IMG/VR virus record: IMGVR_UViG_2718218128_000005
From: a virus
Lineage: Duplodnaviria; Heunggongvirae; Uroviricota; Caudoviricetes
Direction: 5' to 3' (one strand)
DNA length: 12,971 nucleotides
Of this stretch, positions 208-6,219 are shown one piece after another; within the stretch, counting starts at the first letter, position 1, and every line of letters starts with the position of its first letter. A program made the translations under genes and the position numbers. The notes beneath the pieces are model-generated. The model was not told where the DNA came from. It did no database searches and worked only from the letters and a program-made list of their open reading frames with translations.

Positions 208-792
208 TTACTCCCTGACAGGGTTCGTAGGCCACTCAATATCAGGTGCAGTTGATGTATCAACACGGTTCAGCAACACCCGATACTTTTTCCAGGCTTC
301 CAGCAATGAGGTTTCTTCCTCCGTTGCGATTTCCAGATCTACAGCATCCTGAAGTGGCGCAATATGCTCACTGGCTACCTGCATCAGGCTGTTTTTTATT
401 TCTTCCGCCTCTCGGATCCGGAACAGTTTTTCTGCTTCTGCATCTTTCACCCAGGCTGTGCCGTTCCACTTCTGAAACTCCCCTTCCGGCGATAACCAGG
501 TAACATTTTCCGGTAACGGACCGAGTTCAGAAATAAATAACTCGTCCCCTGACGCTACGTCATAAACCGTTTTACCCCGATGGTCTTCAACGAGATGCCA
601 CGATGCCTCATCACTGTTGAAAACAGCCACAAAGCCAGCAGGAATATCTGGTGGTGCAATATCGGTACTGTTTGCTGGCAGACCTGTATGAGGCGGAATA
701 TATGCATCACCTTCACCAATAAATTCATTAGTTCCGGCCAGCAGATTATAAATTTTTATGGTCCGTGCTTGTTCACTCATTCTGAATGCCAT
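208..792 (-). CDS. tfa: Tail fibre assembly protein (lambda Tfa family), apparently intact, 194 aa
   Basis: The translation looks like lambda/lambdoid Tfa proteins from memory. ATG at 792-790; its start overlaps the stop of the upstream tail-fibre frame (TAATG). Confidence 0.88.
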
Positions 793-3043: not shown

Positions 3044-3537
3044 TGCTGACCCCACAAACAGATTTCACGCTCAATCTCACGACGAGTCATGAGACCTTTC
3101 CATTGCTTACCGCCAGCATATGTCCAGCGACGTAGCTGATCACATGCGCCTTTGATATCGCCCTGGTTTATTTTGCGAAGAAGCGTCGATGTTCTGAAAT
3201 TGCCAGCACCCACGTTGTAAACGAATGAGTAAAGAGCGCCGCGCGTTGTTTCCGGTATATCGACTTTGATGTACGGGTTAATTTGTCTGGCGACAGTGGC
3301 AAGGTCTTTATTCAAGAGTGCTTTGCATTCTGCTTTGGTATACGTTTTACCGAGCATGATGTCTTTTCCTGTATGCCCGTGACATACAGTCCATACACCA
3401 ACAATATCTTTATATGGTATGTAGCTGACACCTTCCAGACCATCGTCACCACTCGGACCAGTGATGAGCACAGACGCTATGGCAACAGCCCCACCACCAA
3501 TAGCAGCTGCTACAGCCTTGCGTAATGATGGCGACAT
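3040..3537 (-). CDS. rrrD: Phage-21-type endolysin with N-terminal SAR domain (T4-lysozyme-like, GH24), 165 aa
   Basis: Gly/Ala-rich weakly hydrophobic N-terminus ([20 protein letters not shown]) followed by an E...D...T catalytic arrangement ([18 protein letters not shown]). Its ATG overlaps the S stop (TAATG). Confidence 0.93.
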
Positions 3538-3752
3538 TATTCACCTCTCGCAGCCTTACGCTTATCTTCTTTAATCTTGAAATAAAGGTTTGTCAGGTAC
3601 GTCAGCAGGCCAAATACCAGGCTACCCAGCACTCCAATTGCCGCCCACTGTGAGGGCGTGACTTTATCTAGCAGCTGTAAAAACCAGTACCCGGCACTAC
3701 CTGCTGAGGTGCCATAGGCGACACCCGTTGTTAACTTATCCATGGATTTCAT
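3537..3752 (-). CDS. essD: Pinholin S21-type holin with dual-start motif (MKSM), 71 aa
   Basis: 71 aa with two predicted transmembrane segments and Met1-Lys2-Ser3-Met4, the classic antiholin/holin dual start of phage 21 S. GAGGTGG Shine-Dalgarno sequence upstream. Confidence 0.93.
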
Positions 3753-3861
3753 AACCCCACCTCGCAGACAAAGCGGGTGTAAATTGAGGGAATACTACGA
3801 AACGTAACAGACTCGGAGTCAGTGAATAACTCAGGTATTGGGTTATCAGCTAATATCGAGA

Positions 3862-3897
3862 CTCAAAAAATGGAAAAACCCGCTCGACGGCGGGTTT
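3862..3897 (-). terminator. Intrinsic terminator on the minus strand about 110 nt upstream of S; candidate late-operon tR'-like terminator
   Basis: Stem AAACCCGC(3876-3883)/GCGGGTTT(3890-3897) with a 6-nt loop. On the minus strand it is followed directly by TTTTTCCATTTTTTG. Confidence 0.5.
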
Positions 3898-4325
3898 AAG
3901 CTGTGTGACGAAGTAACCACTCTTAACAGCATAACCAATTTTTTACGTACGTAAACCACTAAATGATATTTGCGAGAATGCTACCGAGTATTGAAAACAC
4001 CACTACAAATACATAAGCAAATCTCAACAAATAACCAACAAATAATTTCCAGTGTTATTTTTAGCCGATTTAAATTGAACCTTCAAATTATAGAGCACTT
4101 ATAAATAACAGCCGTTAATATAAATTGGCTAATAGATTTATTTTTATTCAGCCAAGAGCTATAAATAGGATTCGATAGAAAAAAGTTCAGATAAAAATAG
4201 AGATCTACTTCACAAATCAAACGAGAAACCAAAACTTACATCTTGAAATAATCACATTGATTAGATGAATATTTATCGCGCAGTGACATCATTTTTTAAT
4301 AATAGTTCAAAAAAAAGGGCTCACG

Positions 4326-5423
4326 ATGAAAAAATTAACAGTGGCAATTTCTGCTGTAGCTGCATCAGTACTGATGGCGATGTCTGCTCAGGCAGCTGAA
4401 ATTTATAATAAAGACAGTAACAAGCTGGATCTGTACGGGAAAGTTAATGCCAAGCACTACTTCTCCTCTAATGATGCAGATGATGGTGATACTACTTATG
4501 CCCGTCTTGGCTTCAAAGGTGAAACCCAAATCAACGATCAACTGACTGGTTTCGGTCAGTGGGAATATGAATTCAAAGGCAACCGCGCTGAATCTCAAGG
4601 TTCCTCCAAAGACAAAACCCGTCTTGCATTTGCAGGCCTGAAATTCGGTGACTACGGCTCAATCGATTACGGCCGTAACTACGGTGTAGCATACGACATC
4701 GGTGCGTGGACTGACGTTCTGCCAGAATTCGGTGGCGATACCTGGACCCAAACAGATGTGTTCATGACTGGTCGCACCACTGGTGTTGCAACCTATCGTA
4801 ACAACGACTTCTTTGGTCTGGTTGATGGTCTGAACTTTGCTGCTCAGTACCAAGGCAAAAACGATCGTAGCGATTTCGATAACTACACTGAAGGTAACGG
4901 TGATGGCTTCGGTTTCTCTGCTACCTATGAATACGAAGGATTCGGTATCGGTGCAACTTATGCGAAATCTGATCGTACCGACACTCAAGTTAATGCAGGG
5001 AAAGTTCTTCCTGAAGTATTTGCTTCCGGTAAAAATGCAGAAGTTTGGGCCGCAGGTCTGAAATATGACGCTAACAACATTTACCTGGCCACTACCTATT
5101 CTGAAACCCAGAATATGACTGTATTTGCTGATCACTTCGTTGCTAATAAAGCCCAAAACTTCGAAGCTGTTGCACAATATCAGTTCGATTTCGGTCTGCG
5201 TCCGTCCGTTGCTTACCTGCAATCTAAAGGTAAAGATCTTGGAGTATGGGGCGATCAGGACTTAGTCAAATATGTTGATGTAGGTGCAACCTATTACTTC
5301 AACAAAAATATGTCTACTTTCGTTGATTACAAAATCAACCTGCTTGACAAAAATGACTTCACTAAAGCACTCGGTGTAAGCACTGATGACATCGTTGCTG
5401 TAGGTCTGGTTTACCAGTTCTAA
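4326..5423 (+). CDS. nmpC: Outer-membrane general porin, NmpC/Lc (OmpC/OmpF family), apparently intact, 365 aa
   Basis: Signal peptide ending [10 protein letters not shown], general-porin-like sequence and the terminal ...VGLVYQF. It lies between Q and the lysis genes on the opposite strand, as nmpC does in DLP12. Confidence 0.93.
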
Positions 5424-5596
5424 TCTGATTACGAAAAAGATATGTTGCGGGAGGCGTTGCCTCCCCAACATATAAGTGGCTCCCTCAAGCCACTTCCTTT
5501 AGAAGCACAACCTTGCTTCTAACTATATAAACCTTCTGTTATATATTACCCTTTATTTTTGGGGGCGTCTCAACGCCCCATTTTTAATAATTTTTA
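5424..5596 (+). ncRNA. ipeX: Candidate IpeX-like small RNA / structured 3' region downstream of the porin gene
   Basis: Three successive hairpins (5449-5465 GGGAGGC/GCCTCCC; about 5471-5492 AAGTGGCT/AGCCACTT; about 5500-5517 GAAGCA/TGCTTC) plus the terminator at 5562-5596. I recall a porin-inhibitory sRNA (IpeX) mapped just 3' of nmpC in DLP12; the boundaries here are guesses. Confidence 0.25.
5562..5596 (+). terminator. Intrinsic terminator on the plus strand (porin / 3' RNA terminator)
   Basis: Stem GGGGCGT(5562-5568)/ACGCCCC(5573-5579) with a 4-nt loop, followed by ATTTTTAATAATTTTT. It would also shield Q from antisense read-through. Confidence 0.5.
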
Positions 5597-5612
5597 GTAA
5601 ACAATTGGCATA

Positions 5613-5996
5613 TTAATTAGAGTTATTAACAACGATATCCATCTCTAACCGGATATCTAATGCCATTAACATCCCTTCAATTATGCCCTCAGCCTTCTGT
5701 AACCTTTTCCCGATATAACCATCAGAGCAGCAATGCTTACCTGCCAGTGACATGAATGTCATACCGACTACATAATAATCTACTAATAAATCGTGCAAAT
5801 CGCTGTTGTTCTTTTTCAGACGGGCCATGCACCCGCAAATAATCATCGCGTCATCGTCACAACATTGCGGGCGAGATTTTACTTTTGAAGTAATTAATCC
5901 CTTAAAACCGGCGGCAATGGACGACCAGGTCACATCTTCATGATTATTAGCCGCCCACGCTCCCCAACGCTCAAGAACCATCTGAATATCACGCAT
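5613..5996 (-). CDS. quuD: Late-gene antiterminator Q, 127 aa
   Basis: ATG at 5996-5994 with GGAG upstream gives 127 aa ([18 protein letters not shown]...), the size of DLP12 QuuD. The track ORF starts 5 codons earlier at TTG. Confidence 0.9.
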
Positions 5997-6081
5997 CAAC
6001 TTACTCCACAAAAATCAGACCAGAACGCCAATTACAAGCAAAAATCAACAAAACAGTATTAGTTGATTGTTATCTCTGACT

Positions 6082-6219
6082 TCATACTCCTGCTCCTGTC
6101 AGGGTTTTGGCGTAATTCTTCAGTATTCGGTAATCGGTCAAAACAGAACCGGGGAAACGATATAAGCGCAGATGCCCCCAGCGGTGGCGAAGAAGTTCTG
6201 CCATATAAAACTCAAACAT
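6082..6219 (-). CDS. ylcG: Small nin-region ORF, 45 aa (YlcG-like)
   Basis: My translation from ATG 6219-6217 to stop 6084-6082 is [45 protein letters not shown]. Its start overlaps the rusA stop (TGATG), and its position between rusA and Q matches ylcG. Confidence 0.45.
   Translation of the reverse strand: MFEFYMAELLRHRWGHLRLYRFPGSVLTDYRILKNYAKTLTGAGV

Follow-up and report, generated by a model that had tools for sequence, protein, structure and literature searches.

A probable Q-dependent late switch split by a porin cassette in a DLP12/PA-2-type lambdoid prophage

Introduction

In phage lambda, a constitutive late promoter, pR', directly follows the Q gene and gives rise to a short transcript that is terminated until the Q protein modifies the polymerase, the lysis genes being the first to be transcribed thereafter. 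The leader RNA of lambda is 194 nt long. In phage 21, the Q protein (structures 6P18 and 6JNX, family PF06530) works with a binding site between the -35 and -10 elements, a -10-like pause element early in the transcribed region and a terminator further downstream. Q21 binds a direct repeat of TGAGCA (PMC6606751), and the bubble of the Q21 complex spans +3..+15. In the Shiga toxin phages 933W and VT2-Sakai (Sp5), the pR'-tR' region is the source of the small RNA StxS: RNase E cuts a 258-nt pR'-tR' transcript to leave a 3' fragment of 74 nt that binds Hfq. The Sakai start site has been mapped by dRNA-seq at 258 nt upstream of the 3' end found by Term-seq, with RNase E cleavage at +173 (Sy et al.; PMC7547250).

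The DLP12 prophage of Escherichia coli K-12 (quuD-nmpC-essD) and phage PA-2 (lc) carry essentially the same locus as the one described here. Rueggeberg et al. (2013, 2015) reportedly ascribed the Q-responsive expression of the DLP12 lysis genes to an RpoE-type promoter, and the published DLP12 model is said to place the Q-responsive promoter at this RpoE-type site, about 355 nt upstream of a block of the 933W type. The locus analysed here lies in a stretch of 12,971 nt from a virus of the Caudoviricetes (IMG/VR record IMGVR_UViG_2718218128_000005), referred to below as the window. It very probably carries a Q-dependent late switch of the 933W/Shiga-toxin-phage type, whose two parts, Q and pR', have been split by an inserted porin cassette.

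Gene order and phage type

The window is a segment of a lambdoid prophage with the DLP12/PA-2-type arrangement, its early-right and late genes lying on the minus strand, where gene calls and profile matches also identify NinB-like, YbcO and RusA genes (Table 1). Positions 3400..6100 are 90-99.5% identical to 36 sequenced phages, 434B among them, and positions 3700..4400 are present at 80% or more in 2353 of 5426 complete E. coli genomes (about 43%). In K-12 DLP12, the porin is disrupted by IS5, and of the 101 positions at which the PA-2 block aligns with that of the window two differ, one lying in the hairpin and the other upstream of the -35 element. The Q product belongs to the 933W/QuuD subtype of the Q21 family, lambda Q being a member of an unrelated protein family. 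It is 77% identical to the homologous Q of VT2-Sakai and 84% identical to that of PhiR40_1, and it is a distant relative of Q21 itself, the phmmer match to the solved structures (E 7e-7) aligning only the N-terminal 80 residues.

Table 1. Features of the late control region and its neighbours in the window; positions with a sign are relative to the pR' start site
Feature	Position	Strand	Basis and remarks
Q antiterminator gene	5613..5996	-	127 aa, N-terminus MRDIQ, upstream GGAG ribosome-binding site; PF06530, E 4e-53
3' flank of porin cassette, structured	5424..5612	+	carries plus-strand intrinsic terminator 5562..5579 (terminator scan)
Porin gene, nmpC/lc type	4326..5423	+	convergent with Q; PF00267, E 1e-156
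Upstream late-strand promoter in porin cassette	-10 TATTAT 4304..4299; start 4292	-	K-12 U00096.2 576,081 (+), score 90.2
pR' -35 TTTACG	3955..3950	-	aligns with 'putative late promoter' of VT2-Sakai
14-bp perfect palindrome TTTACGTACGTAAA, candidate Q-binding element (-34..-21)	3942..3955	-	contains the -35
pR' -10 TATGCT	3928..3933	-	16 bp from the -35; same register as Sakai TATCAT; about 30 nt upstream of the hairpin
pR' start site (A)	3921	-	homologous to dRNA-seq-mapped Sakai start; K-12 Cappable-seq site on the same base
Conserved initial transcribed region TAAGAGTGGTTACTTCGTCAC (-4..+17)	3905..3925	-	alignment of four phages
Candidate sigma-dependent pause element TACTTC	+7..+12	-	overlaps qut as annotated in Sakai; final T of -10-like hexamer missing; Sakai has TACATT
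Hairpin, stem AAACCCGC/GCGGGTTT, loop CGTCGA	3897..3876	-	terminator scan; centroid fold -12 kcal/mol
U-tract TTCCATTTTTT after hairpin	down to 3865	-	113 nt separate the end of the tail from the S start codon
Holin gene S, S21 type, first late gene	3537..3752	-	PF04971, E 2e-35; 169 nt 3' of the pR' start site

The preliminary description of this DNA had reported a convergent porin gene with plus-strand terminators of its own between Q and S, and the gene calls and the terminator at 5562..5579 bear this out. The annotations of its counterparts in 434B and related phages read porin, NmpC or OmpD, and its promoter lies within 199 bp of the start codon, which corresponds to window 4127..4325 (PMC11677980). 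With its own promoter and terminator, its insertion between phage modules and the existence of relatives without it, the porin has the attributes of a moron; in relatives of the locus, Q and pR' are adjacent or other cargo occupies the same junction. The structured 3' flank of the cassette is the counterpart of the ipeX sRNA region of DLP12. A search against Rfam at gathering thresholds returned no family for this flank, for the leader or for StxS, and one of 3700..5700 at permissive E-values added only matches at chance level. On the other side of the porin, the region 3753..4325 is AT-rich as previously noted (34% G+C, as compared with 43% for the whole window) and leads into S, which is followed on the minus strand by R (lysozyme) and then Rz.

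Placement of the late promoter

The position of pR' follows from homology to VT2-Sakai. A sensitive DNA search with 3753..4325 as the query matched 356 phage records, 36 of which covered at least 80% of the query. In those of the remaining records that were sampled, the match was confined to query positions 370..452, equivalent to window 3956..3874 on the minus strand, and fell at the 3' end of the Q gene or just past it. This stretch matches the Q-downstream region of hundreds of Stx phages (E 1e-8; 9e-18 for PhiR40_1), and its 83 nt are about 77% identical to the block of VT2-Sakai that comprises late promoter, qut site and first hairpin directly 3' of Q, for which the Sakai annotation gives 'putative late promoter', 'putative Q-utilization' and 'possible rho-independent terminator'. 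The alignment preserves the -35 TTTACG, the 16-bp spacer, the -10 element, the start base, the leader with its invariant TAAGAGTGGTTAC, and the hairpin with its T-tract; the 'putative Q-utilization' stretch corresponds to window 3914..3907, and the palindrome overlapping the -35 is nearly the same in both, TTTACGATCGTAAA in Sakai and TTTACGTACGTAAA in the window. The sequence TAAGAGTGGTTAC is invariant in four phages that were aligned before any pattern was chosen, and it occurs in a single copy within the window.

When Sakai and the window are compared directly, they share exactly two collinear blocks, Q and the promoter block, which are separated by 88 nt in Sakai and by 1707 nt in the window. 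The Sakai promoter overlaps the 3' end of Q, whereas that of the window lies 1.69 kb off, beyond the porin cassette, which is what moves the promoter block 1.7 kb away from Q: the gap between the Q stop (5613) and the -35 (3955), about 1.66-1.69 kb, is filled by the cassette. The canonical layout with pR' immediately 3' of Q is absent here, a difference of layout and not of mechanism. Since pR' matches only 8 of 12 consensus positions, it is missed by a consensus promoter scan, and both it and the terminator features rise above chance by homology and conservation, not by consensus matching.

Mapped transcription starts point to the same base. In the Sakai sequence, the distances from the A located seven bases after TATCAT are 258 nt to the U-tract of the second terminator and 173 nt to the GU/AUU junction; as both fit this A, the mapped Sakai start is the base homologous to A3921. 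In K-12 DLP12, the block of promoter, leader and terminator is identical to that of the window, and the start predicted from it, the essD ATG minus 169, is NC_000913.3 577,229 or U00096.2 576,452, the offset of 777 between the two assemblies agreeing with the essD-relative positions. A plus-strand start exactly at U00096.2 576,452 is among those in the Cappable-seq table of Ettwiller et al., albeit a weak one with a score of 1.7. The only other plus-strand start listed in U00096.2 575,453-576,907 is at 576,081 (score 90.2), the equivalent of window 4292, and none is listed between 576,081 and 576,452. Sakai homology and the K-12 start site thus establish a real promoter with a start site upstream of the lysis genes: a sigma-70 promoter 169 nt upstream of S, with a hairpin and U-tract 25 nt after the start. 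The proposal that the Q-dependent late promoter lies beyond the porin, instead of beside Q, is upheld by this evidence and by 105 related loci among the matches listed, discussed below.

Two suggestions about the same region fared less well. The minus-strand TATAAT at 4092..4087, which had been singled out as a tentative -10 element of pR', is present in the sequence but was rejected in that role, having neither homology nor a K-12 start at the equivalent position; the -10 is TATGCT at 3933..3928. A divergent control region shared with the porin promoter had also been envisaged, and in a loose sense the two promoters do share this stretch; with the pR' start at 3921 and the porin promoter within 4127..4325, however, the core promoters are at least 200 bp apart, and no sign of shared control was seen. 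A label in the 1986 PA-2 record that marks window 3901..3921 (+1..+21 of pR') as a CRP site was likewise set aside, as the consensus fit is poor by eye and the label coincides with the conserved pR' leader.

The hairpin downstream of the start site

The hairpin begins 25 nt downstream of the pR' start site, and together with its U-tract (3897..3865) it is the sole terminator-like site between pR' and S that the scan detects. Taken by itself, the site is not above chance, as 4 terminator-like sites occur in 4 kb where shuffled sequence leads one to expect 3.5, and the folding energy of the leader is ordinary (z = -1.1). Conservation among related leaders is more telling: among the matches listed, all 53 distinct leaders retain a hairpin followed by a U-tract, the stems being of at least six different sequences, and the U's after these hairpins fall at +43..+62. 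RNAalifold, applied to 28 leaders, recovered only a small invariant 5' stem (+2..+17) without compensatory changes and missed the terminator, because insertions and deletions shift the stems out of register; the leaders were therefore folded one by one. A putative terminator thus stands between the promoter and the late genes. The tR'-like terminator first reported at 3897..3862 and about 110 nt upstream of S is confirmed in substance by the hairpin and its tail, by the homology and by the 53 leaders among the matches listed, the distance to S now being measured as 113 nt.

The predicted leader RNA of about 50 nt is shorter than that of lambda, and the part of the Sakai transcript that lies beyond it has no counterpart here. 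Only the first 45 nt or so of the Sakai transcript have a homologue, Sakai +46..+265 giving no significant match to the window, and as the 74-nt 3' part is missing, the locus is not an StxS locus. In Sakai, a second terminator follows at +258 and the 74-nt StxS is derived from the longer RNA, while in the window nothing follows the first hairpin before S, 113 nt on, and neither the terminator scan nor the comparison with Sakai revealed a second terminator. The homologous hairpin in Sakai is read through to the second terminator at +258 (PMC7547250), which makes the termination efficiency of the window hairpin uncertain; given the abundance of the 258-nt RNA in Sakai, it may be a weak terminator. 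With read-through in Sakai and no second terminator in the window, there are two possibilities: the window hairpin terminates more efficiently than would be expected from the Sakai data and its short RNA escapes detection, or S tolerates some basal read-through. In the Term-seq supplements of PMC7815308, neither essD nor coordinates 57722x-57728x have an entry, and so short an RNA may have been missed by these libraries.

Alternative explanations

Two other positions of the late promoter have to be weighed. Adjacency of pR' to Q is the canonical lambda arrangement, and a promoter at 5612..5424, directly 3' of Q, would send Q-modified polymerase antisense across the porin to S; a weak minus-strand pair resembling -35 and -10 elements (TTGAGA, 19 bp, TAATAT) can be discerned by eye around 5570..5540. 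This possibility, which the preliminary description had itself raised, was pursued by motif, by the Sakai block and among the K-12 starts, and no pR' or qut site was found. The stretch holds no copy of the conserved leader with up to three mismatches allowed, shows no similarity to the Sakai pR' block and yields no promoter-like site in the promoter scan, and no K-12 start is listed just downstream of quuD. It carries the plus-strand terminator of the porin, and 5424..5612 is found in 36 phage records, the same number as the whole Q-porin-S stretch. A promoter directly 3' of Q was rejected for want of a leader copy, of Sakai pR' similarity and of a K-12 start, and very little credence can be given to it. 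Another reading holds that the functional Q-responsive promoter is the start at 4292 or the RpoE-type promoter with its +1 near 4276, the block at 3955..3921 being weak or vestigial. The K-12 signal at the equivalent of 4292, which is 371 nt upstream of the pR' start, is about 50-fold stronger in the Cappable-seq data than that at 3921. PMC7918800, which cites the Q dependence of the DLP12 lysis genes, describes control of the lysis operon by Q and RpoE, citing Rueggeberg 2013 and 2015, and its 'regulatory region' of -121..+650 puts the +1 near window 4276, 3' of the RpoE-like GAACT-N17-TCACT (a position inferred from the primer coordinates in that paper, which are numbered after Rueggeberg 2015). 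A transcript from 4292 would meet the hairpin at 3897..3865 too, after about 420 nt. This upstream promoter belongs to the porin cassette, however, and loci with other cargo or none do without it, whereas the 933W-type block with the matching Q type is found in all 105 loci among the matches listed; nor is the upstream promoter similar to any mapped pR'. Proteins of the Q family load at a binding site and a pause element near the start site (10.1101/651190, PMC6606751), and the conserved candidates for both sit at 3955..3905. In a genomic SELEX survey, the peak upstream of essD (interval listed as insH-essD) is that of the RpoS and not the RpoE holoenzyme, and reporter fragments of -121..+650, which hold both promoters, do not tell one from the other. 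On the comparative data, the 933W-type promoter is a better candidate for the target of Q than the RpoE-type site, and the upstream reading appears improbable.

The role of the hairpin at 3897..3865 can also be seen differently, as mainly a conserved structure of the leader that lets most transcription pass and belongs, for instance, to the Q-loading or pausing signal or to a regulatory RNA, with S-R-Rz held off by other means such as Rho or H-NS. The homologous hairpin of Sakai (seven U, +24..+45) does lie inside a 258-nt primary transcript that is abundant in Q-less lysogens, and several natural variants that weaken the stem exist, such as the GCTGG form in PA-2 and at least 16 viral loci. 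What speaks for termination is that the U-tract directly follows the stem in all 53 variants among the matches listed, despite their differing stem sequence and position, which is the signature of an intrinsic terminator; that this hairpin is the only terminator-like site from pR' to the holin gene in this phage type; and that the RNA of about 50 nt may have escaped RNA-seq as well as Term-seq libraries. A structure that serves mainly for something other than termination is on balance unlikely, and the hairpin is treated below as the tR'-type terminator.

Proposed operation of the switch

In a lysogen, pR' would fire at a low constitutive level and, without Q, most transcripts would stop at 3875..3865 as an RNA of about 50 nt. 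Upon induction, Q expressed from 5996..5613 on the early-right transcript would act in trans. It would bind the -35/spacer region, where the palindrome TTTACGTACGTAAA is the candidate site, while sigma-70 holds the polymerase at a -10-like element in the conserved leader, for which TAC(A/T)T(T/C) at +7..+12 is the candidate, and it would then travel with the polymerase past the hairpin, so that S-R-Rz and the other late genes are transcribed. Binding site, pause and read-through are proposed by analogy with the Q21 system (10.1101/651190, PMC6606751), whose logic is expected to apply here too, with two differences of detail: the candidate site is a 14-bp palindrome that overlaps the -35 instead of a direct repeat, and the candidate pause element is set farther downstream. 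The porin cassette points away from the late genes and has a promoter and terminators of its own; it would thus be expressed in the lysogen and not be crossed by late transcription.

The pR' and tR' elements belong to the known Q/pR'/tR' kind and are closest to those of 933W and Sakai; the layout is common and involves no new mechanism, departing from the canonical one in a single feature, namely the separation of pR' from Q. This placement of pR' leaves the known mechanism of Q antitermination as it is. What the placement does is fix the late promoter, its start and its terminator, left unmarked by annotation, for a prophage type found in about 43% of complete E. coli genomes, including K-12, where the locus has so far been interpreted through a different, RpoE-type promoter.

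The Q/pR' junction in related loci

A pattern derived from the leader retrieved at least 120 viral contigs, and 105 loci with an upstream Q homologue, among the matches listed, were compiled from viral contigs, phage and genome records and the window. Among these listed matches, Q ends 6-41 nt from the leader motif in 26 of the 105 loci and 627-2886 nt from it in 79, proportions that are only descriptive since the leader served as bait, for which reason its invariance is also partly by construction. The gaps between Q and leader contain, among the matches listed, about 24 unrelated cassettes, with the long ORFs on the reverse strand in 22, and their cargo comprises porin, small lipoproteins, Kiwa KwaB, NA37-like proteins and a hydrolase as well as the PADLOC candidates PDC-S20 (KAP NTPase) and PDC-M68A (HNH). 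Cargo has been inserted repeatedly at the junction of about 90 bp that extends from the 3' end of Q to about -50 of pR'.

Across the 105 loci among the matches listed, several types of the promoter segment -34..-21 can be told apart, most of them a short palindrome with an A-tract after it: TTTACGNNCGTAAA, GCGGTCCGC, ACGCG(T/C)ACGC, TGTTATAACA, TGGAATTCCA and ATTCGTTACGAAT. Each type pairs with one Q group, without exception among the matches listed and whether Q lies 6 or 2886 nt away, while the leader and hairpin 3' of the start site are common to all types among the same matches. The same pairing could also have arisen through the exchange of cassettes by recombination within flanks that are shared.

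From these observations a wider reading can be put forward, tentatively and as a conjunction of three parts that is somewhat less likely than not to hold as a whole: that the junction is a general hotspot in phages with a 933W/QuuD-type Q, that Q recognises a palindromic site overlapping the -35, and that the sigma-70 pR' is the Q target in K-12 DLP12. Reverse-oriented cargo may be swapped in and out at this hotspot, with the Q/promoter pair staying matched, and the cargo may include porins, lipoproteins, the Kiwa defence system and the candidate defence genes encoding a KAP NTPase (PDC-S20) and an HNH protein (PDC-M68A). As a corollary, the Q target of K-12 DLP12 may be the sigma-70 pR' and not the RpoE-type promoter of the literature. 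No publication was found that places pR' in DLP12-type phages or describes the Q/pR' junction as a cargo hotspot, which is weak evidence of novelty as few subscription journals were covered. Apart from this reading, the split layout shows that a Q gene and its target promoter tolerate kilobases of separation, and it points to the junction as a site where porin, defence and other genes expressed in lysogens gather, uncrossed by late transcription. The viable hybrid phage 434B carries the DLP12 Q-nmpC::IS5-S segment, in which Q lies 2886 nt from the promoter.

Cargo at the junction of Q and the late promoter

The stretch from Q to the leader of the Q-dependent late promoter pR' was compared among loci L003-L124, which had been retrieved using the leader pattern as bait, and among the loci listed around 24 distinct cassettes, each 0.6-2.9 kb long, make up the cargo at this junction. 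Long open reading frames on the reverse strand occur in 22 of these approximately 24 cassettes (among the loci listed; for example L014, L023, L051, L112 and L122). The cargo of the listed loci includes Kiwa KwaB, the PDC-S20 KAP NTPase and the PDC-M68A HNH protein as well as NA37-like proteins, a hydrolase and lipoproteins, and the Q/pR' junction looks like a hotspot for defence genes and morons.

Features of the late control region and elsewhere in the window
Feature	Position	Strand	Basis or remark
Short motif overlapping -35	Window 3942..3955; -34..-21 in 105 loci	-	Comparison of loci
Start site and -10 TATTAT	Window 4292..4304	-	K-12 Cappable-seq at equivalent base
Hairpin ATATGTTG-CGGGAGGCGTTGCCTCCC-CAACATAT	Within window 5424..5612	+	
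Terminator	Window 5562..5579	+	Within porin-Q intergenic region
First hairpin and seven U's	L125 (E. coli Sakai Sp5) 669..692		+24..+45 from pR'
RF02111 (IS009), full-length Rfam match	Window 251..449	-	227.8 bits vs gathering score 117

The late promoter, its leader and terminator

Across the 105 loci listed, the type of the -34..-21 motif switches together with the type of Q protein, and the motif, which is palindromic in most types, is followed by an A-tract. It is a candidate Q-binding element, unlike that of phage 21, where a direct repeat serves as the Q site. Downstream, the 1986 GenBank record of PA-2 labels a CRP-binding site (J02580.1 1067..1087, window 3901..3921); this label was set aside, as the stretch constitutes +1..+21 of the conserved pR' leader, within which lies an inverted repeat, GTGG...TCAC. 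The stem of the terminator tR' shows frequent natural variation at window 3883, where GCTGG replaces GCGGG in PA-2 and at least 16 viral loci; the change introduces a mismatch and lowers the predicted stability from -10.9 to -6.5 kcal/mol. The first Sakai Sp5 hairpin resembles a terminator in sequence, yet lies inside the 258-nt StxS precursor described in PMC7547250, the consulted portions of which contain no mention of it.

Transcription around the porin gene

The porin start codon lies 33 nt from a strong late-strand start site (window 4292, minus strand), whose equivalent base in K-12 has a Cappable-seq score of 90.2, with the -10 element upstream. In the literature on DLP12, this site may go under the name 'essDp', and RNA begun there would extend about 420 nt before reaching the tR' hairpin. 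Plus-strand hairpins crowd the porin-Q intergenic region (window 5424..5612), to which the small RNA ipeX of DLP12 maps; an Rfam search of this region returned no matching family. Elsewhere in the window, the RF02111 match lies inside or overlaps a 194-aa ORF (208..792, minus strand).
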